Translations under genes and position numbers: made by a program | Virus genome (UHGV): UHGV-0123923 | Source of the DNA: a virus | Direction: 5' to 3' (one strand) | DNA length: 40,997 bases | Notes under the pieces: generated by a model | Databases searched by the model: none | Seen by the model: only the letters and a program-made list of their open reading frames with translations | What the model was told of the DNA's origin: nothing | Part shown: positions 2,155-33,930 of the stretch, in pieces | Numbering within the stretch: position 1 is the first letter of the stretch | Layout of the letters: each line of letters starts with the position of its first letter

Positions 2155-3575
2155 TTCTTACCTCGTCTCTTCATGTAATTAAGCAACTCTTCCTGGACCG
2201 ATTTCTTCTCGTCAGTACGCGAGGCAACAACCTCGTCCAGCGTGTCTTTAGCAACGATGTGATAGATGAACACTGGTCGCTCGTGGCCCGCCTGCTTCTG
2301 GCGCACCGGGCCTATACGCTCGACAACCTGCAAATAGTGCTCAAGGTTCCAGCCTTGCGAAATAAACGCCAGATGATGTCCGCCGTCCTGTAAATTCAAG
2401 CCATGGCCGGCTGACGCGGGGTGCACGCATAGGATTTCGATTTCGCCACGGTTCCACGCTTCCATCTGCTTATTACCCTTGGCACCTTTGGCGAACGCCT
2501 GCGCCTGCGGGAATCGCTTAAGGATGCGCTCCAGTTCGTGCTTGAACTGATAGGCCACCAGTAACGGCGCGCCCTGTAACTCATCAACAATTGACTCCAG
2601 CGCATCCAGTTTCGTGTCGTGCACTTTCTCCCAGTCTTTGGTTGCTTCTCCGTCGTCACCCGTCACATACACGGCACCGGAAGCAATTTGCAAGCACTTT
2701 GACGTCTTTGCCGCCGCGTTAGCGGCTTCAACTTCTCCGCTCTCCAGTTCTGCGAATAACTTTTCCTCCATATCTATGTACGCCTGACGTGCTTTCTTCG
2801 GCAGGTCAATTTCAACAGGGACGATAATTGGCGCTTCGCAACCGAACCACTCAGCGGCGTCAATCGTGAGACTAATGTCCTTCATCTTCTGATGGATTTC
2901 ATTATCCGCACCAGGGCGCGCATGATACTCACGCGCCATCGCTGATTTGCCTTTCTGTACCGAGTTAAACCAGCGGTCGGTGAATGCTGTGTATGAAGAA
3001 CCGAGGCGCTCACCCGCGTCGATAAACCAGTTCTGGCCCCATAAGTCCTTGAGGCCGTTCGGCGACGGCGTACCAGTCAGGTTAATGAAACGCTTAACCT
3101 TACCGAACGCAACTTTACTTAGCGCCTTCGCCCTCTTGCTTCCACCTGAACGGCTGCGGAATGATTTCAGCTTCGTGCTTTCGTCGGCGACGATAACGGT
3201 AAAAGGCCAGTCGTCTTTGCCGTAGTAGTCAATCAGCCATTCGATAACTTCGTAGTTTGTACACACCACGTTAGCGTCTGATTCCAGCGCCGCGATGCGG
3301 CGCTTCTCTGAACCGGTTGCGTCAACGACACTCAGACAGGGAAAGTTCCATTTCTCTTGCTCTGCGGGCCACGTGCCAGACGCAACACGCAACGGGGCGA
3401 GGATTAACACGCGGTCGTCGTCATTAAGTTGCCCATTGCGGAACAGTCGGTTTAAAGCCCACAGGACACTGCCCGTCTTCCCGGCGCCCATGCTTGCCCA
3501 TATGTTGCAGCGATGGTGCCGCAACATGAACGAAGTCATGAGCTTCTGGTACTCGCGCCTTTGAAACTTACTCAT
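2151..3575 (-). CDS. SNF2/DEAD-like superfamily 2 helicase
   Basis: Walker A MGAGKTGS, DExx box VIVADEST, C-terminal helicase domain; 474 aa. Confidence 0.8.
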   Translation of the reverse strand: MSKFQRREYQKLMTSFMLRHHRCNIWASMGAGKTGSVLWALNRLFRNGQLNDDDRVLILAPLRVASGTWPAEQEKWNFPCLSVVDATGSEKRRIAALESDANVVCTNYEVIEWLIDYYGKDDWPFTVIVADESTKLKSFRSRSGGSKRAKALSKVAFGKVKRFINLTGTPSPNGLKDLWGQNWFIDAGERLGSSYTAFTDRWFNSVQKGKSAMAREYHARPGADNEIHQKMKDISLTIDAAEWFGCEAPIIVPVEIDLPKKARQAYIDMEEKLFAELESGEVEAANAAAKTSKCLQIASGAVYVTGDDGEATKDWEKVHDTKLDALESIVDELQGAPLLVAYQFKHELERILKRFPQAQAFAKGAKGNKQMEAWNRGEIEILCVHPASAGHGLNLQDGGHHLAFISQGWNLEHYLQVVERIGPVRQKQAGHERPVFIYHIVAKDTLDEVVASRTDEKKSVQEELLNYMKRRGKK

Positions 3576-3763
3576 TTCAGCACCAGAACTAACTCTTTAC
3601 GCCCGAACGCCGTAACGTTACCAGTTACATCTTCGATAACCAGTTTACCGTTCGACTCGACGAACACCGTATCAACGGCAACAGGCTGGCGTGTCTTAAC
3701 GTTGAAAATCATGTCACCCGGTACGATGTCACGTGCTGGTTTGCGGTCATATTCGTGTTTCAT
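3572..3763 (-). CDS. hypothetical protein (63 aa)
   Basis: AAGGA RBS; stop overlaps helicase start. Confidence 0.5.
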   Translation of the reverse strand: MKHEYDRKPARDIVPGDMIFNVKTRQPVAVDTVFVESNGKLVIEDVTGNVTAFGRKELVLVLK

Positions 3764-3793
3764 TTCTCAATTCCTTATATTGTTGGTGTAGGA

Positions 3794-4081
3794 CTAACTA
3801 TAATAGTTCGCTATTAGGTCGTCAACCTGTTTAAACGAACCAACGACAAAAACATTCGCACCACGTTTACGCATCCGCTCATGTTCCCGTAGCTGGTGCG
3901 GGTCTGGCTTCGTGTTCTCGTCTTTCTTAACCTCGACGAACCAGACTATGCCGCCGGGGATAATTACCAGCAGGTCGGGGGCGCCCGCTCTATTTTCGTA
4001 CGACAATTTGCGTACGAGGCCTCCCAGGGCCTCGAATCGCTCTTTTGCGTATTCCTGCACGCGCCCCTCAGGCGTACTCAT
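3794..4081 (-). CDS. VRR-NUC domain nuclease
   Basis: 95 aa; GGGAGGGG RBS; motifs PDLLVI...VEVK consistent with a PD-(D/E)XK VRR-NUC fold. Confidence 0.7.
   Translation of the reverse strand: MSTPEGRVQEYAKERFEALGGLVRKLSYENRAGAPDLLVIIPGGIVWFVEVKKDENTKPDPHQLREHERMRKRGANVFVVGSFKQVDDLIANYYS
3797..3825 (-). promoter_or_regulatory. sigma70-like promoter (TTGACG-N17-TATAGT) with operator motif, embedded in the 3' end of the VRR-NUC gene
   Basis: minus-strand -35 is the reverse complement of 3820..3825, -10 of 3797..3802; AATAG(3802..3806)-N4-CTATT(3811..3815) palindrome in the spacer. Confidence 0.45.
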
Positions 4082-4174
4082 CTATACACCCCTCCCGTTT
4101 CGTATGCGCGATACCGCAGCGAGGGCAGATTCGACAGTCTTCTTCATATAACCAGTAAATTTTCATTCCAGCAC

Positions 4175-4294
4175 CTACAGATAAATTGCGATGAACATGC
4201 TCAATATGGCAACCATCATGCCGTATTGACCCTCGTGACAGTAGACACCGGCAGCAAATCCCGCCAGTACCGCGATAATCAGTTTACTTGGCAT
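4175..4294 (-). CDS. possible small hydrophobic membrane protein (39 aa)
   Basis: ATG overlaps the DNA polymerase 3' end in another frame; MPSKLIIAVLAGFAAGVYCHEGQYGMMVAILSMFIAIYL; no clear RBS. Confidence 0.25.
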   Translation of the reverse strand: MPSKLIIAVLAGFAAGVYCHEGQYGMMVAILSMFIAIYL

Positions 4295-6464
4295 AACGCT
4301 TCATCTCCGCGCCTTCTGCTACAAGAGGGAACCCCTCGGCCCACTCTGGTAATTCGCACATCAATCGTTCCAGTTCTGCGACATTGTATTCTGGTAAATC
4401 TGGTGTCTCGCAGATAATCTCATCGTGAACATGAAGCACAATCGGGTAGCCGTTTGCTTCGACGTTCAGCAGTGCATTAGCCAACAAATCACGGCACAGC
4501 GCCTGAGTGCAGTTTTCCACCAGTTTACCAGAGTAGGTGTACTGGAAGCCCCACTGACGGGTTAACTGGTTTTCGCCCTGGTACTTGATGCGCACGTTGG
4601 TAGACACCTTCCCGTCTTCGTCTGTCTCTTTCGACACGCTTAACCCGACGCCAGGGTATGACATAACTCGACCAGACGGCAACGTCATACGCAACCACCA
4701 ACCGGCGACTTTGTTGCCGTTGTTGTCCGTTTCTACGTTGCGCGAAAACTTAACTCCCCGCGGCCCTGCGGTGAACTCTTTGCCCGGATTGCGGATAGCT
4801 GCCATAGCTGCGTCTTCAATATCCCGCCAGAAAGCTACTGTTTCCGGGTGTGACTCACGCCACATACGCTTGATAGCGTCGCAGGTACGCCACACTTTCT
4901 TATCAAGAATATAAGATGGTCGGTCATCATTTTCACCTGGACGTGGTGGTCGCTTGGCTTCCTGAATACGCGCCCACTCATATCCACGTGCGGTAGCAGC
5001 CCAGATGTGGTCGGGGAAAGTCCCGTCCATTGTTTTTGCCATATCAACAAGGTCAAGGCCGAGGTTCTTGGCGAACTGTACGAATGCGCCGACACCACCC
5101 GCGTAGCCAAGTCCAAGTTCGCATGCCTTACCAATCTGGCGTAAGTCTTTACGTTCTTTCTTAATGTAATCCGGCTCCATGCCGAACATCTTGCCTGCGG
5201 TTACGCAGTAAATATCCAGCCCGGCACGGAACGTATCAAGCGCGGTTTCTTCGCCAGCCAGCCACGCCAAACCGCGGCCTTCAACGTTCGAGTAGTCGGC
5301 GACGACAAACTTATACCCGGCTTCCGGGATAATGCAGCTGCGAACCGTAGATGCCGTTAGCTTGGCTACATCAAAACGGCGATGTGCTCGGCCCTTAAGT
5401 AATGCTGAAATACCTTTATCCAGTTCATCATCGTGATAGTACCCACGCGCCAGGTTCTGCGGCTGGAAGCCTTTACCCGCAAATCGTAACGTACGTTTAG
5501 CTCCACCATACTGGATGCAACCGCGACGGCGGTCGTCAGACGAGCGGCCTAACAGCAGCGGGTTATATTTCGTTGACGCAGTGGATGCCGCCCCGAGGCG
5601 CATTTCTATAATCGTGCGGGCGTCGTCCGGTAAATCATCGTCAGCAAGCAGGTCGTTAAGCGTAGACTTCTGCGCGTTGTGGATGCGATGCGCAGGCGCC
5701 AGTTCACGCAGAATCGGCAGGAAGTCCTTACCTGTAAGCGAGCCGCCGTATTTACGTTGGGCTTCTTCCTGTAACTGTGCCTTGTGTTTCTCCACAGCTT
5801 CAATTGCGGCTTCCGCCAGCGCAACGTCGACCTTAAACCCGCGGTCGTTAATTAACTGGTCCAGTTCCAGTACACGGTCTTCGAACTCGGAGTTACCCCA
5901 ACGCGGCAACTTATGGAACACTTCACGCATCGCGGTGATGTCGCTAACGGCGTACTTGATGAACAGCGCCCACTCATCCGGGTGCGTTTCAGCAGTGTAG
6001 CGGCGAATTTTGTAGTTCTTCGGCGTCGGTTTAGAGAAACGCTGAATAAGCGCTTTGCCTCGTTTGTCTTTCGCGTTGTCTGCAGACACGCCAAGCACTT
6101 CGCACAATGCGTCGAGTGAACCCGGCAGCGCGTGACGAAACGCCCAAATCATCGTATCAATGGTGTTGCTTACGGGAATATCAAAACCCCAGCAGTGCTT
6201 CATGATGAGTCTGTCGAACATTGAGCCGTTGTGCCACACCATCTTAATACGGCTGTTTGGTTTCACCAGACGGCGTAACGCGCGGTGCAAATCACCCGGC
6301 ATGTCGCTGCCGTTGGTGCAATCCCATACCTGCACAGGCTCGTCGTCAAAAGCATATGTGCAGATTAGAACTTCGGTGGTTGGATGTTCGGCGTAAGCGT
6401 AGGAGCCGACTTTCTTCAAATCGGCTTCTGAGAATGTTTCAAAGTCTAAGAACAGGTAACTCAT
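4284..6464 (-). CDS. family A DNA polymerase with N-terminal 3'-5' exonuclease domain
   Basis: 726 aa; exo motif FLDFETFS; polymerase motifs DYSNVEGRGLAWLAGE (A), RQIGKACELGLGYAGG (B), VLHVHDEIICE (C). Confidence 0.9.
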   Translation of the reverse strand: MSYLFLDFETFSEADLKKVGSYAYAEHPTTEVLICTYAFDDEPVQVWDCTNGSDMPGDLHRALRRLVKPNSRIKMVWHNGSMFDRLIMKHCWGFDIPVSNTIDTMIWAFRHALPGSLDALCEVLGVSADNAKDKRGKALIQRFSKPTPKNYKIRRYTAETHPDEWALFIKYAVSDITAMREVFHKLPRWGNSEFEDRVLELDQLINDRGFKVDVALAEAAIEAVEKHKAQLQEEAQRKYGGSLTGKDFLPILRELAPAHRIHNAQKSTLNDLLADDDLPDDARTIIEMRLGAASTASTKYNPLLLGRSSDDRRRGCIQYGGAKRTLRFAGKGFQPQNLARGYYHDDELDKGISALLKGRAHRRFDVAKLTASTVRSCIIPEAGYKFVVADYSNVEGRGLAWLAGEETALDTFRAGLDIYCVTAGKMFGMEPDYIKKERKDLRQIGKACELGLGYAGGVGAFVQFAKNLGLDLVDMAKTMDGTFPDHIWAATARGYEWARIQEAKRPPRPGENDDRPSYILDKKVWRTCDAIKRMWRESHPETVAFWRDIEDAAMAAIRNPGKEFTAGPRGVKFSRNVETDNNGNKVAGWWLRMTLPSGRVMSYPGVGLSVSKETDEDGKVSTNVRIKYQGENQLTRQWGFQYTYSGKLVENCTQALCRDLLANALLNVEANGYPIVLHVHDEIICETPDLPEYNVAELERLMCELPEWAEGFPLVAEGAEMKRYAK

Positions 6465-7203: not shown

Positions 7204-7232
7204 ACTATAATAGCTAACTATTCGGGTGTCAA
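7204..7232 (-). promoter_or_regulatory. sigma70-like promoter (TTGACA-N17-TATAGT) with operator motif
   Basis: -35 is the reverse complement of 7227..7232, -10 of 7204..7209; AATAG(7209..7213)-CTAA-CTATT(7218..7222). Confidence 0.45.
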
Positions 7233-9608: not shown

Positions 9609-9637
9609 AACTATAATAGCGAACTATTCACTTGTCA
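9609..9637 (-). promoter_or_regulatory. sigma70-like promoter (TTGACA-N17-TATAGT) with operator motif
   Basis: -35 is the reverse complement of 9632..9637, -10 of 9609..9614; AATAG(9614..9618)-CGAA-CTATT(9623..9627). Confidence 0.5.
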
Positions 9638-10129: not shown

Positions 10130-12393
10130 TCCAAATCCTCCTCTGTCACTGTCAGCATCTCATTCGGTTCATATATTGTCTTCGGAATCTTGTTATCAGT
10201 TATCCGGGTGTTCAGCCTGTAACGGCCAGGGATTATCTGATTGTTTTCGTCAGTCCCCGGAACAAGATACCCAGCCTCAACCATTTTCTTAATCTTCCCG
10301 CGTTCTATGGCTTCTTTGGAGTTAAACGCCTTTGCATTGGGGTCAGACTGTGCGAGCTTATTAGCGGCGGCGACTGTGATGCCTTCGTTGCCGTTGTAGG
10401 TTCCTTCCGCCAGTTCAAACGCCGCCAGTATCGTGGCTTCTGAACTGTTGACGGCGTTCTCTATGGTTTTACGTACGTTTTCTTTACCTTCTTTCGTCAA
10501 CCCTTCTTCCCGCTCTTTCTCCTCGTCAGTCTTGAACGGCTCGAAACCCCACGGCATTAACACAAGTGCCTTATGCGGCTCCGGCAGGTCGAGGTTTACG
10601 ATTGTGCCGTATTCCTCCGTGCTACCGAGGAACTCAACCGCACGGTACTCTTTCGGCGGCGGCGCTTCACGGAACTGTACCGACTCCAGCACCATGCCAA
10701 CCGTCTTCTGTTGCGGCCCGTGCTTAAATTTCGAGTGGTATACATTTATCTGACGGTCGGTAGCTCGTTCGATTGTCAGTTCCACGTCGACGCCAGCATA
10801 CAGCGCCCCACTGCCGCGGGCTTTCTTTCCGCCCTTCGGCGTATGGTGGACAACGCCTACCGCAGCTTTAGTCGCGTCACGTACTTCTTTCAGGATGGCG
10901 ATAACCTTACCCATGCCGATTGCCGTTGATGAACTGTTCTCGTCGAACTTATCAATCGTCAGGGCTAGCGTCTGGTTGAGGGTGTCGAACGCAACCATGC
11001 CGATGGGTTCGTCACCCGCAGTTTCACGCATCAACTTAATCAGGCTTTTCAGTTTTCCGACTTCGCCCATGTCGATGACATGTACATAATCTTTACCTTC
11101 CTCGCCATATTTAGCCGCGAGCGCATCGATACGGGTGCGTGTAGCTGCGCCGCCCTCACCGTCGATATAGAAATGGTGGCAACGCTGGGTGTCAGCACCC
11201 GCAAACCGGTATCCGGCGGCGCTCAGGTACATCATCCCCAGCGTATAGAAGGATTTATACGTACCGGACTCCCCGACGATATCCCATATGCAATCCGACG
11301 GCATGTACCCTTCAACGACGAAATCAGCCTTTACCGGTTCCGGTAACTCGTCCTCCTCTGAGTCCTCGTCGTCTTCAAGGTCGTCCAGGCTGCAAGAAAC
11401 AGATTCACGTGCACCCCATCCGATGGCCTCTGCGACTTCACTGAACGGCAGCCCCGTCGCATCGCACGCATACTTCCACACCTCTTTCGGTGACATGCCT
11501 TCGGTCGCCGTAATGTCAGTGTCGTGAATCATGGTTACGTTCGGCGCCTCATATCCCTCTCGCGGGAAGCACAGCAGGAAGTCATCCGGGCGCGGCGTCG
11601 GGTCGCTGTAGTTTTCTGCGTGTTCTGGCGTAGCTGGCATCTTAAGGCCTCGTGGCGTCATGATACCGCCATACTCGAACGCCAGTGCCTCGAACGCGTC
11701 GGTAAACGCGGTGCGCAGTTCTTCCGGTATCTGGTAATCCGATGCGCTGCTAACGTCAACGGCGGGGATGCCTTCCAGTAACTCGTCCGGGTCAATCAGG
11801 TCGTTGCGGCGTGACCAGATAACGGTAGAGCCAACCGGAGGCAGGTACATCGGTTGCGAAAGAGTGAACCCGCTGCGGTCAGCACCCATGCTTTTGAAGA
11901 AGTGTTCCAGCAATCCATGGCGAACACGGATGATGTCACCACCTTCGACCGGACGGGCCAGCGGCATGACGACGCGAAAGCGCGGGGCCTCGTCGGTATG
12001 TGATGCCGTGGTATAGATACACATGCCCCGGCGGCTGCGTTTAACTAAGCGCACCGCTTCCTGATACTCTTCTGGTGTTGCGCTGTCGAAGTCCAGATAC
12101 GCCAGCGACGATTTGCTTACAGACGCGTCACAGCGATAGAAAAAGCCTTTACGCGCTTGCTTAAAGTCGCCGGTTTCCGGGTCTTTTACAGTGCTGTGCG
12201 TCGAGTCGCACGCGGCGGTGATATAACCGGGCGCGGTCTTCGGGTTAATTCCGTCACGGACAGCATCGAGTGGCTGGATTAACTCTTTCAGGTCGTCCAG
12301 TGTTGCCGTGTGTGTGGTTCTGACGTTTATATCCTTTTTCTCAGCCCGCGCGTTGCGACGCGACCACGAGTAGGATAAAATTACATCGGACAT
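10126..12393 (-). CDS. primase-polymerase (AEP-like) fused to a RecA-like ATPase (primase/helicase)
   Basis: 755 aa; GAAGGAAAT RBS; N-terminal LAYLDFD and SHTDE motifs; C-terminal Walker A GESGTYKS in a DnaB/RepA-like ATPase domain. Confidence 0.7.
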   Translation of the reverse strand: MSDVILSYSWSRRNARAEKKDINVRTTHTATLDDLKELIQPLDAVRDGINPKTAPGYITAACDSTHSTVKDPETGDFKQARKGFFYRCDASVSKSSLAYLDFDSATPEEYQEAVRLVKRSRRGMCIYTTASHTDEAPRFRVVMPLARPVEGGDIIRVRHGLLEHFFKSMGADRSGFTLSQPMYLPPVGSTVIWSRRNDLIDPDELLEGIPAVDVSSASDYQIPEELRTAFTDAFEALAFEYGGIMTPRGLKMPATPEHAENYSDPTPRPDDFLLCFPREGYEAPNVTMIHDTDITATEGMSPKEVWKYACDATGLPFSEVAEAIGWGARESVSCSLDDLEDDEDSEEDELPEPVKADFVVEGYMPSDCIWDIVGESGTYKSFYTLGMMYLSAAGYRFAGADTQRCHHFYIDGEGGAATRTRIDALAAKYGEEGKDYVHVIDMGEVGKLKSLIKLMRETAGDEPIGMVAFDTLNQTLALTIDKFDENSSSTAIGMGKVIAILKEVRDATKAAVGVVHHTPKGGKKARGSGALYAGVDVELTIERATDRQINVYHSKFKHGPQQKTVGMVLESVQFREAPPPKEYRAVEFLGSTEEYGTIVNLDLPEPHKALVLMPWGFEPFKTDEEKEREEGLTKEGKENVRKTIENAVNSSEATILAAFELAEGTYNGNEGITVAAANKLAQSDPNAKAFNSKEAIERGKIKKMVEAGYLVPGTDENNQIIPGRYRLNTRITDNKIPKTIYEPNEMLTVTEEDLE

Positions 12394-13073: not shown

Positions 13074-13317
13074 GCTAAATAGTACTCTTGGTAACGTTAG
13101 TATCTAAGTTTCCTCAAAGTAACAGCAAGTGGCAAGAAAGCCCCCGTCTATTTAAATTTTACCCTCCTTCATAAGCCACTGATAATTAAAAGTTTCTATA
13201 GTTGCCGTAAACGTGGAAGAGAGTACTTCACTTCGCTGGGGTGGGCTAACGCCCACCCACTGCGTTGCGTACTCTTTTAAGAAACGAAAGAATCACAACG
13301 GCAACGTAACTATTCTC

Positions 13318-13346
13318 TTGCACACCCCAACATAATAGGATACTAT
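13318..13346 (+). promoter_or_regulatory. promoter (TTGCAC-N17-TACTAT) with operator motif, for the rightward small-gene block
   Basis: TTGCAC 13318..13323, TACTAT 13341..13346; AATAG(13334..13338)-GATA-CTATT(13343..13347); ~36/39 nt identical to the reverse-strand promoter at 33012..33040. Confidence 0.55.
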
Positions 13347-13380
13347 TCACTTATCGAAACGAGACAGAGGAGTGAGGGTT

Positions 13381-13772: not shown

Positions 13773-13951
13773 TGCGAATCCGTATAACTGACCGCAGGCT
13801 TGTCCGTATAACTGACCGCAGGCTTATAGATTTCGGTATCTCGGTAGGTGATGTTTTTCCGGCGTTCAGCATCAACCATTATGGTTTTATGATTGAGTAC
13901 AAAGGGTCGTTATTGTTCGTGTATCGGGATGAATGTGAGGTTCTGGTATGA
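13772..13951 (+). CDS. hypothetical protein containing an 8-residue tandem peptide repeat
   Basis: ATG behind GAGGGAGG RBS; 24 bp tandem duplication encodes RITDRRLV-RITDRRLI. Confidence 0.45.
   Translation: MRIRITDRRLVRITDRRLIDFGISVGDVFPAFSINHYGFMIEYKGSLLFVYRDECEVLV
13780..13827. repeat. 24 bp tandem direct repeat, 2 copies, 23/24 identical
   Basis: CCGTATAACTGACCGCAGGCTTGT then CCGTATAACTGACCGCAGGCTTAT, read directly. Confidence 0.85.
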
Positions 13952-14611: not shown

Positions 14612-14640
14612 TTGCACACTGGGATAGAATAGGCTACTAT
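14612..14640 (+). promoter_or_regulatory. promoter (TTGCAC-N17-TACTAT) with operator motif
   Basis: TTGCAC 14612..14617, TACTAT 14635..14640; AATAG(14628..14632)-GCTA-CTATT(14637..14641). Confidence 0.55.
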
Positions 14641-14670
14641 TCATTTACACGAGCGAGAGGAGAGACAGAG

Positions 14671-22684: not shown

Positions 22685-22705
22685 AGCCCCGAAAGGGGCT
22701 TTCTT
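22685..22705 (+). terminator. hairpin/weak terminator after the portal gene
   Basis: AGCCCC-GAAA-GGGGCT followed by TTCTT. Confidence 0.45.
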
Positions 22706-23787: not shown

Positions 23788-24248
23788 TGATGGGCTTTTT
23801 CAAAGTAACTGACGTACCGTCTCGTCGCGTAGTCCAGTACGCCCGCGTGTCTGGCTCTGGCGAGAACGTGGTGTTTATTGAAGACGAAAGTGTACTCGGA
23901 ACACCAGTGGACGATATGCCGTTTGCGGACAAGACCGGTATTGCGCTGCCAGCGGCAGGTATGCTTTATGAGATTCAGTACCTGGCGGATGCTGGTGATG
24001 TGTATTTCTCCGTACAACCGCAGGACGCTGAACTGGCAGACGGCAGCGCAAATATCGCTGTCGAAGTTAAGGCGGGCAAAGCACCATATGCGCTGACCTG
24101 GTACAAAGACGGGAAGGAAGTGGTAAACGCCCCGGAAGAGGCTCTGTCTCTGACGGTTAACGCAGTTGGTGAATACTTCGTTAAAGTCACTGATGCCGAC
24201 GGTATAGAGGCCGTAAGTAAAGCAGCGAAGGTTACTAAGCCAGAATAA
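23787..24248 (+). CDS. virion-associated protein with probable C-terminal Ig-like domain
   Basis: 153 aa; AAAGGGGAA RBS; motifs YALTWYKDGKEV...GEYFVKVTDADG resemble bacterial Ig-like domains. Confidence 0.4.
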   Translation: MMGFFKVTDVPSRRVVQYARVSGSGENVVFIEDESVLGTPVDDMPFADKTGIALPAAGMLYEIQYLADAGDVYFSVQPQDAELADGSANIAVEVKAGKAPYALTWYKDGKEVVNAPEEALSLTVNAVGEYFVKVTDADGIEAVSKAAKVTKPE

Positions 24249-24253
24249 ACTGA

Positions 24254-24275
24254 AGCCCCGAAAGGGGCTTTTTAG
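24254..24275 (+). terminator. intrinsic terminator
   Basis: AGCCCC-GAAA-GGGGCT followed by TTTTTAG. Confidence 0.7.
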
Positions 24276-29384: not shown

Positions 29385-30553
29385 ATATGGCTACAACTCC
29401 TTTTAAGGGCGCGAATACTGCGCAATTCTATGTGGCAGAAACTACCCCTGGCGTAACACCGACTAACCCGGTCTGGTCGCCATTGCGTAACACAGGTGGC
29501 GTTCCTGCCATTACCCGCGACACGCTGACCTCCAACGAACTGGACGGCAGCCGTGAAACTACGTCAATACGCACCGGTAACAAGCAGGTTAGCGGAGAAT
29601 ACGCTATTGAGCTTAGCTCGAAAAGCCAGGACGACTGGCTGGCGGGAGCTTTAGGCTCTACATGGCAATCCGGTAGTTCTCTGACCGGGCTATCAATTAC
29701 CGTCGCGCCCGCAGGCAAGACCTTTACCCGTGCCGAAGGTAGCTTTATTTCTGACGGCGTTGAAGTGGGCGACCTGATTGCGTTTACCGACTTAACCGGT
29801 GACAACGCAAAACCGTTTATCGTAACTGCAGTAGAGGCGCTGGTAGTGACCGGGGCGGGTATCCAGCATACCCTGACCACAGAGACAGTAACTACCGCCG
29901 CTAAGACAGGGGATAAACTGGAAACGGGAAGCCAGTGCAAGACGTTCTCTATTCTCACCTGGTACAAAGGCCAGTGCGGCGGGACTGACGCGTACACACT
30001 AACCAAAGGCGTGGAAGTTTCTGGTTTTACCATCGAACAGGCTGTTAACGCTATGGTAACTGGCAGCTTCCCGTTCATCGGTCGCAGTCAGGAGATTCTC
30101 ACCACGCAGCCGTCTGGTTCTGATTTCTCCTCTGTTACGTTTGGTGACGAGCCATTCTCCTCGGTCGATGTTTCTGTGTTCGACGGTTCTACGCCGTTGC
30201 GTTGCGACAGCCTGACCATCACCAACGACAACAGCGCGTCCGCACAGTTCGAACTCGGCAACACTAACGTAGCGTTTGTGGAGCGTAGCCGAGCAGCTAA
30301 CACCTTCTCCATCTCCGGTAAGCTGTACGACATGGCGATGATTCAGAAGTTTATCAACGAGCAGCAGGTGGAGATTAACTCTATTCTGGCTGGGGTAAAC
30401 GGGGCTATGTCTTTCAGTTTGAAACGTGCAGAACTTACAGCGGTTACGCCTGAGATTGGCGGGCCTGAGTCAATCACTCAGTCCATTGAAGGCCAGGCTA
30501 CTGGCAACCAGTACCAGTCATCTATTGTTATTCAGCGTATCACCTACGCTTAA
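29381..30553 (+). CDS. major tail protein
   Basis: 390 aa, Thr/Gly/Ser-rich; last gene before the tail chaperone block; strong terminator downstream. Confidence 0.5.
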   Translation: MNMATTPFKGANTAQFYVAETTPGVTPTNPVWSPLRNTGGVPAITRDTLTSNELDGSRETTSIRTGNKQVSGEYAIELSSKSQDDWLAGALGSTWQSGSSLTGLSITVAPAGKTFTRAEGSFISDGVEVGDLIAFTDLTGDNAKPFIVTAVEALVVTGAGIQHTLTTETVTTAAKTGDKLETGSQCKTFSILTWYKGQCGGTDAYTLTKGVEVSGFTIEQAVNAMVTGSFPFIGRSQEILTTQPSGSDFSSVTFGDEPFSSVDVSVFDGSTPLRCDSLTITNDNSASAQFELGNTNVAFVERSRAANTFSISGKLYDMAMIQKFINEQQVEINSILAGVNGAMSFSLKRAELTAVTPEIGGPESITQSIEGQATGNQYQSSIVIQRITYA

Positions 30554-30558
30554 AACTA

Positions 30559-30581
30559 AGGCCCCGAAAGGGGCCTTTTTC
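30559..30581. terminator. bidirectional intrinsic terminator
   Basis: AGGCCCC-GAAA-GGGGCCT flanked by A-run upstream and TTTTT downstream, between converging + and - genes. Confidence 0.65.
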
Positions 30582-31136
30582 TTACAAACCTAATTTTAAA
30601 GCAATGTCTACAACGTTCGATTTAACGTCACCCGGTATGATGTATGTGTCGTAATCTTTTACACCGCTAACATCATACAGATACTCCCTGCTATCGCCGA
30701 TGAACGTATAGCCGTCTCGGTGCAAGCGAACGATTCTTACATCATGACCTGCGGCGACGATAGGGGCTACTTCGCTGGCGAACCCGCCATCCGACACTAC
30801 AAAAACGTCATCGCCGTCGGGCAAGTTTTCAGCAAGATACTTACCGAAATAATCGCTGCCGAGAACCGGTTTAATGAATTGCTCAGATATAGCAATCATG
30901 AACTGACGCCGCGACAAGCCATTAAGGAAGCCTTCTGGCTTTTCTTTCCGCGCCCGGTCGTCGTAGCCGTCGAGAAACTCGTGGTAAGCATCCGGGCCTA
31001 ACGCCGCCAGAGCGATATTGAACATTGGATTCTTGAAACTGGTAGTTCCTTTCGCAAAGCCCATTTCTACCAGCGCCATAGCAAGTGTGTCTTTCCCACA
31101 ACCCGCCGGGCCATTAAGAATAATTACCTTAGCCAT
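30582..31136 (-). CDS. P-loop kinase, dNMP-kinase-like (GKDT Walker A)
   Basis: 184 aa; ILNGPAGCGKDT resembles the T4 gp1-type dNMP kinase P-loop (from memory); start overlaps the upstream stop (TAATG). Confidence 0.55.
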   Translation of the reverse strand: MAKVIILNGPAGCGKDTLAMALVEMGFAKGTTSFKNPMFNIALAALGPDAYHEFLDGYDDRARKEKPEGFLNGLSRRQFMIAISEQFIKPVLGSDYFGKYLAENLPDGDDVFVVSDGGFASEVAPIVAAGHDVRIVRLHRDGYTFIGDSREYLYDVSGVKDYDTYIIPGDVKSNVVDIALKLGL

Positions 31137-31624
31137 TATTTATCGCTCCCGTGTGATTTTAAGTGTGTAGAGTTCCCGTTACAGTCGTATTCAGTAACCG
31201 CGTGGGTGGTTATACCGAGTCCGCGGAAATGCTTTATTACCGCTGGAGAGTCGTCGAATGCGCACAAGATTCTCTCCAGCCCAATAGCACGCAACACCTC
31301 TTCTTTAATTACGATGTCTTTTCTGATGTCGTGTTTGCTGCGCATTAACAGAACGTCGAACTTGACATTGTTTTTACGTAACCACTCACGAGTTTCTTCC
31401 TCGGCGTCGTCGCTTCGCCCGGTAAGGATGATTATGGTAATCCCGGTATGCCACAGCGTGTTGCACAAGTGAATGTTGTCATATATCGGCGCATCATCTT
31501 TGCACGCCATGTTAAAAGGCTTCCACGCCCATGTTTCGTTGTAGTTATCTTTCGGCAGCAGGTGTAAACGATGTGTACCATCCGCCAATGTTCCATCTAA
31601 ATCGAAAATCACAATATCTTTCAT
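31136..31624 (-). CDS. HAD-family phosphatase, polynucleotide-kinase 3'-phosphatase-like
   Basis: 162 aa; catalytic FDLDGTL, then TGR and DIRKDIVIKEE...AFDD motifs in the order I recall for the T4 Pnk phosphatase domain. Confidence 0.55.
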   Translation of the reverse strand: MKDIVIFDLDGTLADGTHRLHLLPKDNYNETWAWKPFNMACKDDAPIYDNIHLCNTLWHTGITIIILTGRSDDAEEETREWLRKNNVKFDVLLMRSKHDIRKDIVIKEEVLRAIGLERILCAFDDSPAVIKHFRGLGITTHAVTEYDCNGNSTHLKSHGSDK

Positions 31625-32751
31625 CCCAGCATCTCCGGTGAAATAGTTAAACGTGCGACCTCGCCATATTCGGCGCTATAAGTAATTACATTTGCACTAC
31701 GGCCTGACATCCATCCGCCGCGAGAGGCATATGCATCTTTAGCCGCTAGGGTGCGGTGTTGCTCAACAATCATGTTACGGCTTTCTACAATCTTCTGATG
31801 GTGCAGGTGGCCTACGTGAGCGTAACTGTAAACGCTCTCGCCGAACGCTTTACGGAACTTGGCAATCATAACCGGTTCGATAGCGTCGAATCGCGCCTTA
31901 TGCCCGTGGTGAAAGAACAACGTAGTTTTGCCGTGTTGGACCATCTTGTAAACATCCGGCGACGTATCGACGAACACACGAGGCTCATTGTCGTACAGCG
32001 TACTGAACATCTCAGCTAACCAAATCATTCCGCTTTCGTCATGGTTCCCTTGCACAATAAGCAAGCGAACATTTTTATGCTTAACCAGCGCCATATCAAT
32101 AACACGGCGGACCATACGAATCATGTAGCGTACAAGTTTCTGATAGCGCGTGTCGGCGTCAAGAACATGACCGCTTGCGGGTGTAACTGCATCCAGACTA
32201 TCGAAGTGAGCGAGGTCGCCCAGCAGATTAATAACTCCTGTTCCTGCATCCGGAGCTTTCTGGAACGCAGCATCGAACCACCGAGAGAACAGGTCTTCTG
32301 CAATCTTCATATCCCAGTCGTCGCCGCTCTCGTCGGCCCAGGCCAGCATACCGAGATGGAAATCAGATACCGTGTAAAGATTGAGTAGCTTGTCGTCACG
32401 TTTGTCCCGTGCAGGTTTAACAGGTGCAACTGGCGTAATCTCTGACTTCATGCCTTCGATTACGGCTTTCATCAACTCGACCTGACGTTCTGCATCGGTG
32501 TCGGTCTTAACCCATTGCAGTTTAGTGTTGCCAAACTCATCAACCAGTGACGACGTTCCTTTAATCTTGTAGCCATCCGGCACAAGGTGACTAACGTCAC
32601 GCCCGTGACCTACGCCTTTCTTTGCCAATTTCGCTTTACGGATACGAATTACGCGGTCTGAGATGCCGTATTTACGGGCGATGTCTACATTCTTCATCCC
32701 GGCGTTCAATTCTTCCTGTAACTGTTCGTCGGTTATTTTCTTCTGGGCCAT
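31621..32751 (-). CDS. calcineurin-like metallophosphoesterase with N-terminal HTH domain
   Basis: start moved to ATG (MAQKKITDEQ) behind GAGGAAG; metallophosphatase motifs DFH, GDLAH, GNHDE, HHGH, GHLHH; HTH-like N-terminus KNVDIARKYGISDRVIRIRKAKL. Confidence 0.6.
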   Translation of the reverse strand: MAQKKITDEQLQEELNAGMKNVDIARKYGISDRVIRIRKAKLAKKGVGHGRDVSHLVPDGYKIKGTSSLVDEFGNTKLQWVKTDTDAERQVELMKAVIEGMKSEITPVAPVKPARDKRDDKLLNLYTVSDFHLGMLAWADESGDDWDMKIAEDLFSRWFDAAFQKAPDAGTGVINLLGDLAHFDSLDAVTPASGHVLDADTRYQKLVRYMIRMVRRVIDMALVKHKNVRLLIVQGNHDESGMIWLAEMFSTLYDNEPRVFVDTSPDVYKMVQHGKTTLFFHHGHKARFDAIEPVMIAKFRKAFGESVYSYAHVGHLHHQKIVESRNMIVEQHRTLAAKDAYASRGGWMSGRSANVITYSAEYGEVARLTISPEMLG

Positions 32752-32789
32752 GCTTACTTCCTCGTGTTTAGGATTTGTCTTATAGTAGC

Positions 32790-32981
32790 CTACTTCTCTT
32801 TCACGTTCGAGTTGCAAGCCCAGATTAAAATAAATACCCACGGCAGCAGAACCCAACCAAGAAACAGATTAGCCATGAATATTGCCAACTTCGCTTTATG
32901 GTTACGGAAGTACGCAACCAGGAAAGGCGCGAAATAAGCGAGCAGCGCAAACAGAATTAAAGAAACCGGTAAACTGGACAT
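32790..32981 (-). CDS. small two-TM membrane protein resembling superinfection immunity (T4 Imm-like) proteins
   Basis: start at second ATG behind AAGGGG; PFLVAYFRNHKAKLAIFMANLFLGWVLLPWVFILIWA matches the pattern I recall for the Imm_superinfect family. Confidence 0.45.
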   Translation of the reverse strand: MSSLPVSLILFALLAYFAPFLVAYFRNHKAKLAIFMANLFLGWVLLPWVFILIWACNSNVKEK

Positions 32982-33011
32982 TTTAAACCCCTTCATTGTT
33001 GGTGTAAGTGA

Positions 33012-33040
33012 ATAGTACCCTATTATATTGGGGTGCGCAA
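33012..33040 (-). promoter_or_regulatory. promoter (TTGCGC-N17-TACTAT) with operator motif, driving the reverse-strand accessory cassette
   Basis: -35 is the reverse complement of 33035..33040, -10 of 33012..33017; AATAG(33011..33015)-TACC-CTATT(33020..33024); near-identical to promoter 13318..13346. Confidence 0.5.
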
Positions 33041-33148
33041 GTAATGTGATAGAATAATTTTGCGCCTAGTGTCGCACACGAAAAGCGGGTGGTTCCCGTC
33101 TGGCGCATTTATCGTTAACCTGTAACCTCTTAACCAAAGGATTAAAGA

Positions 33149-33565
33149 ATGAAACTTTCTGATTTCTATTTCGAAGAGAAAGCGCTGGTAGGCAAGAAGA
33201 TGCCGATTCTGCTACCAAACGGTGAAGACTCCGGTGAGTGGCTTAATGTGGTAAGCCCTGACGCGGATGTCGCCGTTAAAGCAGGGCGTGCTTTCATTAT
33301 CGCGTACCGCCGCGGGCTGGCGCGTTTTGAAGAACTGGAAAAAGCTGCCAAAGAATCCGGCGACTATACTGAATATAACCTGGCGGTTAACGAACTGGCG
33401 GAAGACCTCAACCGACAACTCGCGGCAGAAGTCGTAAACGGCTGGAGCTTTGATGAGCCTTTCTCTAAGGAAGCGTTTAACAAATTGCTTGACCAGTTCA
33501 AAGCATTAGGTACACAGGTAGCTGCGTTCCATAACGCCGAGCGCAAAGCATTACAGGAAAAGTAG
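33149..33565 (+). CDS. tail assembly chaperone (lambda gpG-like)
   Basis: 138 aa acidic protein immediately upstream of the tape measure; AAAGGA RBS. Confidence 0.6.
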   Translation: MKLSDFYFEEKALVGKKMPILLPNGEDSGEWLNVVSPDADVAVKAGRAFIIAYRRGLARFEELEKAAKESGDYTEYNLAVNELAEDLNRQLAAEVVNGWSFDEPFSKEAFNKLLDQFKALGTQVAAFHNAERKALQEK

Positions 33566-33930
33566 ACGCGCTGTACAGGTTCGCCACCTACGAGTTCGTT
33601 GATAAGCATAAAATCAGAGAGTTTGATTCTATAGCTGACGGACACGAACAGGCGCTTATCGCGATGGGTGTAATCGATAAGAAAAAACGTGCAGCGCGAC
33701 GGGGTGGGCCAGAATGCCCGCCCCTTTTTATATCCACCTTTGAGACGTACTGCGACATTAAGTTTACGCGACACGTGCGCGAGGACGCTGTAGTATTGTT
33801 TGCAAGAGAATCCGTTACGTGGCAAGACCTGAAAGCCTATCTCGATGTTACGCAAAAACAGCTTAGCTTGTTCGAGATAGACATTATCATGGGCTTAGAA
33901 GCAATCTTTGAAGGTAGAAATCATGGCTGA
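33535..33930 (+). CDS. -1 frame extension of the tail assembly chaperone (gpT-like, expressed by frameshift)
   Basis: -1 frame is open from 33535 to a TGA at 33928..33930, overlapping the chaperone 3' end and the tape measure start; candidate slip site CAGGAAAAG at 33554..33562. Confidence 0.4.
   Translation, partial: RRAQSITGKVDALYRFATYEFVDKHKIREFDSIADGHEQALIAMGVIDKKKRAARRGGPECPPLFISTFETYCDIKFTRHVREDAVVLFARESVTWQDLKAYLDVTQKQLSLFEIDIIMGLEAIFEGRNHG

Follow-up and report, generated by a model that had tools for sequence, protein, structure and literature searches.

A four-gene cassette in the tail module of a Kagunavirus genome: a possible operon for DNA breakdown and precursor salvage

UHGV virus genome UHGV-0123923, analysed here over its full 40,997 nucleotides (nt; this whole stretch is termed the window), carries a cassette of four minus-strand genes lodged between the major tail gene and the tail chaperone. 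The cassette encodes an Imm-like small membrane protein, a metallophosphoesterase (MPE) behind a helix-turn-helix (HTH), a stand-alone phosphatase of the HAD type and a P-loop kinase (Table 1). Of the explanations weighed here, we tentatively prefer the one in which the cassette is a middle-class DNA-metabolism operon for the breakdown of DNA and the salvage of its precursors, although we would call it possible rather than probable.

How would such an operon work? Transcription would start from a promoter of the family that serves replication genes. The HTH-MPE might be a Mn2+-dependent DNA phosphodiesterase, i.e. a nuclease, tethered to DNA by its HTH and acting early in infection, either in the breakdown of the host chromosome, in the processing of replication intermediates or in both. 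Binuclear MPE nucleases can leave 3'-phosphates, and the HAD phosphatase would strip these from oligonucleotide ends or from 3'-nucleotides. A kinase resembling T4 gp1 could convert 5'-deoxynucleoside monophosphates (5'-dNMPs) to diphosphates (dNDPs) for phage DNA synthesis, and the first gene would add superinfection exclusion of the Imm type.

A cassette with a promoter of the replication class

The four open reading frames (ORFs) are present as the first-pass annotation of this DNA had placed them, from 32981 to 30582, and the last three are, as it also held, translationally coupled: the MPE and HAD genes overlap in ATGA, and the HAD and kinase genes in TAATG. Mechanical ORF calling extends the MPE to a TTG at 32856; the annotated starts in Escherichia phage EM1 and in phage K1G match the choices of 63 and 376 amino acids (aa) adopted here, and a Shine-Dalgarno sequence precedes both.

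Table 1. Genes and control elements of the cassette, with the positions of the shared palindrome in the window
Feature	Position	Strand	Remarks
Cassette promoter element	33005-33041	-	TTGCGC-17-TACTAT; contains palindrome AATAG-N4-CTATT at 33011-33024
Imm-like small membrane protein	32790-32981	-	63 aa; two transmembrane segments; ATG start behind AAGGGG
HTH-MPE	31621-32751	-	376 aa; ATG start behind GAGGAAG
Stand-alone HAD (DxDxT) phosphatase	31136-31624	-	ORF, 162 aa; polynucleotide kinase-phosphatase type
P-loop kinase	30582-31136	-	ORF, 184 aa; Walker A GPAGCGKDT; predicted gp1-like (d)NMP kinase family
GC-rich hairpin terminator	30558-30577	both	common to the major tail gene (plus strand, ends 30553) and the cassette (minus strand, ends 30582)
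AATAG-N4-CTATT copies	3802-3815, 7209-7222, 9615-9628, 13334-13347, 14628-14641, 33011-33024

A search with region 30400-33200 matched 341 phage records, the best being EM1 (100% coverage at 93% identity), ahead of K1G, K1ind1-3, RP180 and further Kagunavirus members. Judged from these matches, the window belongs to Kagunavirus (Guernseyvirinae). Query coverage of at least 80% was seen in 51 of the records only, and a cassette kept over that much of its length in 51 records is not a chance feature.

The cassette was said to have a promoter of its own, near-identical to one in the early region, and this is what is found: the 37 nt of the promoter element recur at 13317-13353 in the divergent early region, inverted and with 92% identity. 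The palindrome within it, AATAG-N4-CTATT, occurs six times in the window, compared with 0.04 copies expected, and every copy is intergenic. All six lie within promoter-like sequences that belong to the replication, early and cassette transcription units, three of them within minus-strand TTGACA-N17-TATAGT promoters; those outside the cassette precede the helicase, polymerase/single-stranded DNA-binding protein (SSB), exonuclease, primase-helicase and early genes. Because both the promoter element and the palindrome are shared, the cassette falls into the promoter class of the replication genes, in agreement with the early/middle transcription proposed for it.

What does the palindrome represent? 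It resembles an operator, or a promoter-specific element, for a putative regulator. Its arms, but not the 4-nt spacer, are kept upstream of the cassette in EM1, 14 Kagunavirus contigs, Jersey and SE129_1NRH, and the arms persist in every Guernseyvirinae locus examined. The HTH-MPE was considered as the protein that binds the palindrome; this idea is unsupported, as the palindrome is restricted to the Guernseyvirinae and is absent from the Drexlerviridae and podovirus loci with the same MPE.

The terminator at the other end was thought to be bidirectional, which holds only in part. Its 8-bp stem folds on both strands (z-scores -3.5 and -2.5), but its plus-strand U-tract (UUUUUCUU) is strong and its minus-strand one (AGUUUUAA) weaker, and the terminator scan made a call for the plus strand only. 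A terminator that is bidirectional but asymmetric is plausible. Near-identical GC-rich hairpins (AAGGCCCCGAAAGGGGCCTTTT) lie at gene-block boundaries at 1986-2014, 24245-24273 and 30551-30579 (also 22685-22702), and this hairpin family is probably a reused terminator module.

The HTH-metallophosphoesterase

The MPE matches PHROG 704 ('DNA repair exonuclease') at 3.4e-168 and belongs to a family of 4645 clusters at 50% identity, with 2054 phage records. Both the N-terminal HTH and the MPE motifs that had been read from the sequence are borne out. The AlphaFold model (confidence score pLDDT 89.6) has a three-helix HTH at approximately residues 8-44 (helices 8-16, 21-28 and 32-44), a beta-hairpin and helix at 61-102 and a binuclear MPE domain at 119-376; members of the family match Sigma70_r4_2, HTH_23, Fis-type and GerE models. 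Among 46 diverse homologues sharing 33-50% identity with the window protein, the metal-ligand motifs are kept: D130, H132, D179, N236, H237, H282 and H317 are invariant, and H182 (at least 90% conserved) and H315 are nearly so. This conservation of catalytic residues indicates that MPE catalysis is under selection.

Five MPE motifs, including GDxxH and GNHD, are present, as in the Mre11, SbcD and T4 gp47 nucleases. The motif II histidine (GDLAH in the window protein, GDFLH in the family consensus) corresponds to His81 of the Pseudomonas putida MPE, and the motif III histidine (GNHD) to its His113. These two residues are essential for DNA cleavage by the P. putida enzyme, not for hydrolysis of bis-p-nitrophenyl phosphate (bis-pNPP), and that enzyme cuts single-stranded DNA in both orientations, leaving mixed 3'-PO4 and 3'-OH ends (PMC7826289). 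The presence of an HTH argues that the substrate of the window MPE would likewise be DNA. T5 A1, considered as a possible MPE-type host DNase, was dropped as a comparator; it gave a local GNHD-like match at 19% probability and no Pfam match. A literature search found no biochemical test of the phrog_704 MPE family.

The phosphatase, the kinase and end healing

The HAD phosphatase was proposed to be of the polynucleotide kinase (Pnk) type, and it can now be placed there with some precision. It matches Pfam HAD_PNKP at 71.9 bits (cut-off 27.6, E 7.9e-20) and PHROG 415 at 4.5e-65, and its best sequence matches in the PDB are Pnkp1 (4XRP) and T4 Pnk. Every catalytic residue of the T4 Pnkp phosphatase is kept: D8, D10, R19, T68, R70, D103, K107, D124 and D125 align with T4 D165, D167, R176, S211, R213, D254, K258, D277 and D278, respectively, and the DxDxT motif D8-L-D10-G-T12 aligns with T4 D165-V-D167-G-T169. 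In a five-sequence alignment T68, K107, D125, R19, R70 and D103 are invariant, except that Ser and Thr alternate at position 68. Arg176, Arg213 and Asp254 are essential in the T4 Pnkp phosphatase. Asp165 is the nucleophile and Asp167 the general acid, Ser211, Lys258 and Asp278 are phosphate/Mg2+ ligands, and the enzyme dephosphorylates 3'-dTMP as well (PMC3592404). By sequence the window protein is a genuine Pnk-type phosphatase that stands alone, with a predicted 3'-phosphatase activity.

The kinase, whose GKDT P-loop had been recognized in the first-pass annotation, has other relatives. It matches PHROG 139 at 5.4e-44, in the same region that T4 gp1 matches at 1.8e-65. T4-like PseT falls in phrog_505, 415 and 2071, of which phrog_505 and phrog_2071 hold the Pnk kinase, and the window kinase matches neither of these two. 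With the AlphaFold model (pLDDT 91.9), a Foldseek search of the PDB ranks 1DEK, the T4 dNMP kinase, first (E 1.6e-4, template-modelling (TM) score 0.61), with adenylate kinases and phosphomevalonate kinase next; the top 50 PDB fold matches do not include T4 Pnk (1LTQ). The Walker A motif reads GKDT in both the window kinase and T4 gp1, compared with GKST in Pnk. Sequence and profile searches of the PDB gave P-loop matches only and recovered neither gp1 nor Pnk, and hhalign comparisons of the kinase profile with single T4 gp1 and PseT sequences aligned only the P-loop (residues 1-25 for PseT), and so are non-discriminating. On the strength of PHROG 139, the 1DEK fold match and the GKDT motif, the kinase appears to group with the T4 gp1 dNMP kinase and not with the Pnk kinase domain, with the substrate predicted accordingly. 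We would class it as a subfamily of its own among the gp1-like nucleotide kinases.

These assignments bear on an earlier suggestion, that the cassette is a split version of a Pnk-like end-healing set. The HAD would remove 3'-phosphates or 2',3'-cyclic phosphates, the kinase would phosphorylate 5'-OH ends of DNA or RNA, and a host or phage ligase would reseal them; the breaks could come from host nucleases or from the phage's own MPE. An MPE, a kinase and a ligase are together the component set of bacterial Pnkp (PMC3675462). The HAD is a bona fide Pnk-type phosphatase, and it is translationally coupled to the kinase and nearly always linked to it. Era103- and ECBP5-like phages have an ATP-dependent DNA ligase directly after the MPE-HAD-kinase triad, and in a Campylobacter phage the MPE follows a DNA ligase; podovirus class II genes, however, are all adjacent anyway. 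In T7 the proven nucleotide kinase 1.7 sits close to ligase 1.3. Moreover, an MPE plus a HAD would be redundant for healing, and it is only the P-loop of the gp1-like kinase that aligns with Pnk. The cassette had been described as lacking a ligase, and indeed tblastn with three phage ligases found none in the window, and none is annotated in the complete K1G genome. PADLOC defence models gave zero matches to the cassette components, in a library of defence genes and not of anti-defence genes. The gp1-like kinase, the missing ligase and the lack of a PADLOC match all weaken the end-healing proposal. The Pnk-type HAD and the neighbouring ligase of the podovirus versions nevertheless sustain it as a serious rival, though we consider it unlikely.

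Two side points may be recorded here. At 11811-12008 on the minus strand, inside the helicase-primase gene, tblastn gives a weak match (33% over 66 aa, E 3.6e-4) to the phiEa100 DNA ligase, in its N-terminal part; this match is probably spurious or a shared nucleotide-binding motif. Sensitivity of Guernseyvirinae to ApeA was considered as an argument against tRNA repair and rejected, because the BASEL Kagunavirus checked (Bas70) is without the HAD and the kinase.

The Imm-like protein

The identification of the first gene product as a 63-aa Imm-like protein with two transmembrane segments agrees with a match to Pfam Imm_superinfect (PF14373) at 48.3 bits (cut-off 27.9, E 9.3e-13) and a match to PHROG 1039. 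It has two hydrophobic segments of approximately 20 aa, with 19-mers of Kyte-Doolittle value above 2. The gene went undetected in four of the 14 Kagunavirus contigs.

Distribution and gene neighbourhoods

The same four genes, in the same order and at the same site between major tail and tail chaperone genes, are found in K1G (ORF18-21), EM1, Golestan and others, with 88-93% nucleotide identity. The arrangement has been described before. K1G, EM1 and about 50 further genomes carry it as annotated genes, and the K1G record (2010) notes the similarity of ORF18-20 to Era103 and T1 genes. The window itself adds nothing new, its cassette being a near-copy of deposited and annotated ones.

Is the cassette universal in related phages, a question raised in the first-pass annotation? 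It is not. At the same site Jersey (Jerseyvirus) has a 109-aa ORF, the MPE, a 76-aa ORF and Ant; SE129_1NRH has Imm, the MPE, an HNH gene, a small ORF and Ant; and the Kagunavirus Bas70 has only the MPE and the 76-aa ORF, with no HAD and no kinase. These loci show that the MPE is the constant core and that the HAD and kinase are an optional pair. The 76-aa ORF (phrog_2452) is translationally coupled to the MPE where the HAD and kinase are absent (3128-3358 in the Bas70 locus, L098; 5128-5358 in the Jersey locus, L009). It was considered as a remnant of the HAD or kinase, and this was rejected, as it has no similarity to either.

The MPE-HAD-kinase triad extends to other phages. It lies before the lysis genes in Webervirus Sweeny (gp62-64), between endonuclease VII and DNA ligase in phiEa100 (gp26/28/29) and ECBP5 (gp28-30), and in many IMG/VR contigs; in Sweeny, phiEa100 and ECBP5 the order and coupling are the same, at 42-57% protein identity. 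As a lone gene, the MPE is found in Dhillonvirus and in Vibrio, Rhodobacter and Ruegeria phages; in the Campylobacter phage it adjoins a DNA ligase gene.

Linkage was surveyed in 80 kinase-bearing viral contigs, counting genes within 5 kb. A HAD gene lies no more than 5 kb upstream of the kinase in 68 of the 80. The combinations are HAD and kinase (35 contigs), MPE, HAD and kinase (18), these three with Imm (10) or with a ligase (5), kinase and ligase (8) and kinase alone (4). A different HTH-MPE stands directly upstream of the kinase in all eight of the kinase-ligase contigs and in one of the four kinase-only contigs (L064, which ends just past the kinase). It is phrog_221 in L060 (approximately 3735-4931), and tblastn finds it in the other eight; the contigs concerned (L058, L060, L062-L065, L067, L068 and L072) are autographivirus-like and come from IMG/VR. 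Thus, the slot between endonuclease VII and the kinase-ligase pair is occupied by the phrog_704 MPE plus HAD in five loci and by the phrog_221 MPE in nine. The swap is a non-orthologous displacement, an analogy of genomic role and not of family membership. Displacement in the same slot is the strongest indirect argument that the window MPE may do a job similar to that of the phrog_221 MPE.

What is this job? Bxb1 gp47 is a phrog_221 protein. It is a recombination directionality factor that is also needed for replication. A10ZJ24 gp48, from a Cluster A mycobacteriophage and aligned with Bxb1 gp47, is expressed early; in vitro it is a phosphodiesterase and DNase, and it breaks down the genomic DNA of the host both there and in vivo (PMC12287305).

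The example of Bxb1 gp47 suggests another explanation, in which the MPE acts chiefly as a DNA-binding factor in replication, recombination or regulation, and the HAD, kinase and Imm genes are independent morons that share its transcript. The MPE is the core at the site and its neighbours vary (HAD and kinase; 76-aa ORF and Ant; HNH gene), it is solo in the Dhillonvirus and the three other phage groups named above, and its HTH is of the sigma-70 region 4/LuxR type, all as one would expect of such a factor. The retention of the catalytic residues across the 46 homologues speaks for an enzyme, however, and the linkage of MPE and kinase survives a swap of the MPE family. We rate this explanation as quite unlikely.

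Weighing breakdown and salvage

Breakdown and salvage find some parallels in the Drexlerviridae. The 'DNA repair exonuclease' is a persistent, core gene in 508 of 522 genomes of this family, and genes for PNK and dNMP kinase often follow it; the MPE-PNK-dNMP kinase triad is discussed by the authors, who read the PNK and dNMP kinase genes as a boost to nucleotide supply (PMC13164509). For T1 and TLS, breakdown of the host DNA and recycling of its nucleotides are on record, through genes yet to be identified (PMC11447400).

A number of points weigh against breakdown and salvage. 'DNA repair exonuclease' is simply the name of the PHROG, and the nuclease activity of the phrog_704 MPE family is a prediction. 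The MPE is not an orthologue of SbcD/gp47: T4 gp47 is phrog_100, which was unmatched, and the hhalign probability is 10%. Nor is it a member of phrog_221, with hhalign probabilities of 5-9% to phrog_221 proteins. No SbcC-like gene, i.e. a Rad50/SbcC-type partner, is present in the window or in K1G. The PDB fold matches of the MPE are generic and include cyclic-nucleotide phosphodiesterases; those listed are Rv0805, Thermotoga maritima Mre11, PolD DP1, YfcE and GpdQ. Its profile gave no significant match in the PDB (P. putida MPE, 6NVP, E 0.49), and its BFVD fold matches are uncharacterised phage proteins. For the kinase, action on dNMPs, which the first-pass annotation had also entertained, fits better than end healing by PHROG 139, 1DEK and GKDT; but the margin of 1DEK over other NMP-kinase folds is small, and Pfam DNMK (PF21448) has no match to the window kinase at E of 0.1 or below, compared with 357.9 bits for T4 gp1. 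A 3'-phosphatase would be unnecessary if the nuclease yields 5'-dNMPs only, and a phosphatase beside a kinase could be a futile pair on free nucleotides. Lastly, the closest characterised relatives of the HAD act in RNA/DNA end repair, and the adjacency of kinase and ligase in podovirus-like contigs fits end sealing too.

The fold match to Rv0805, a cyclic-nucleotide phosphodiesterase, also bears on a role in counter-defence. In this case nucleotide signals that set off host immunity (cyclic nucleotides, deoxydinucleotides or modified dNMPs) would be hydrolysed by the MPE and HAD, with the kinase phosphorylating dNMP alarm molecules and so removing them. Free dNTPs/dNDPs are the substrates of a bacterial calcineurin-like enzyme that is paired with a HAD (preprint 10.64898/2026.01.15.699771), and products of host-DNA breakdown (m6-dAMP, pdNG dinucleotides) are now known as triggers of defence. 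The HTH, however, points to DNA and not to small molecules, and the MPE persists as a core gene, unlike accessory genes; no resemblance to anti-CBASS, anti-Pycsar or similar families was found, and PADLOC, albeit with a library of defence genes, gave no match. Counter-defence by clearance of nucleotide signals seems highly improbable.

One can also combine elements of breakdown and evasion. The HTH-MPE might be an 'ambidextrous' nuclease like the P. putida MPE, giving host fragments with 3'-phosphate and 5'-OH ends, while the HAD and kinase recycle the products and at the same time remove dNMP or dinucleotide alarms sensed by defences such as PUA-Cal-HAD or ApeA. The triad would then serve salvage plus immune evasion in at least three phage families. 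We hold this combination to be very unlikely.

Breakdown and salvage, our tentative preference, would have consequences beyond this genome. The HTH-MPE family, for all its great size and its core status in T1-like phages, is labelled just 'DNA repair exonuclease'. Should the HTH-MPE prove to break down the host chromosome in phages of the T1-like and Jersey-like groups, it would close a gap that has stood for decades, since the genes for host-DNA degradation by T1 are those still missing from the picture. It would also provide a link to the newly found defences that sense DNA breakdown products.

Other features of the window

A tailspike gene is at 39-1988. The left arm, by PHROG searches, is a minus-strand replication module with helicase, resolvase, DNA polymerase, gp2.5-like SSB, exonuclease and helicase-primase genes. 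Residues 445-538 of the DNA polymerase ORF (4284-6464, minus strand) match the endonuclease family phrog_93 (2.2e-13), which is also the family of a small resolvase-like ORF at 3794-4081; the stretch in the polymerase may be an inserted or a shared domain. In the early region an exact 23-nt direct repeat (TCCGTATAACTGACCGCAGGCTT) is present at 13779-13801 and 13803-13825, the copies being one base apart, and it could be an iteron or a binding site. Next to the cassette, two tail assembly chaperone frames (33149-33565 and 33664-33930) lie upstream of the tape measure gene; in K1G these frames are annotated as one joined (frameshift) product. The second frame contains, at 33701-33724, a strong hairpin with a T-run.

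Comparison with known systems

The window cassette does not differ materially from those of K1G and EM1. The Drexlerviridae and podovirus triads, by comparison, are without the Imm gene, and they are placed differently: the Drexlerviridae triad precedes the lysis genes, and that of podoviruses (Era103/ECBP5-type Autographiviridae) is among the replication genes and is followed by DNA ligase.

T4 Imm and the window Imm-like protein are both small PF14373 proteins with two transmembrane segments. The window protein is the shorter one (63 aa). The phage that encodes it is a siphovirus and injects with machinery different from that of the T-even phages, so that exclusion is a putative function here.

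The phosphatase domain of T4 PseT and the window HAD are alike in the DxDxT HAD fold and in all catalytic residues. PseT, however, has 160 additional N-terminal residues with its kinase domain N-terminal to the phosphatase, whereas the window HAD has no fused kinase: the kinase is a separate gene downstream, of a family other than that of the PseT kinase domain. The HAD is also without the RNA ligase partner of the T4 PseT system. RNA repair of the bacterial Pnkp type, whether Hen1 takes part or not, needs a ligase (adenylyltransferase) in addition to its kinase and MPE phosphatase; a ligase is not found in the window or K1G and is adjacent only in the podovirus versions. With T4 gp1 (1DEK) the window kinase has in common PHROG 139, GKDT and the best fold match, yet it is 57 aa shorter, is 18% identical in the structural alignment and falls below the Pfam DNMK threshold.

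Finally, the P. putida MPE (6NVO) and the window MPE are both binuclear and both carry the GDxxH and GNHD histidines. Relative to the P. putida enzyme, and to the phrog_221 MPEs, the window protein has an added N-terminal module of HTH and beta-hairpin.

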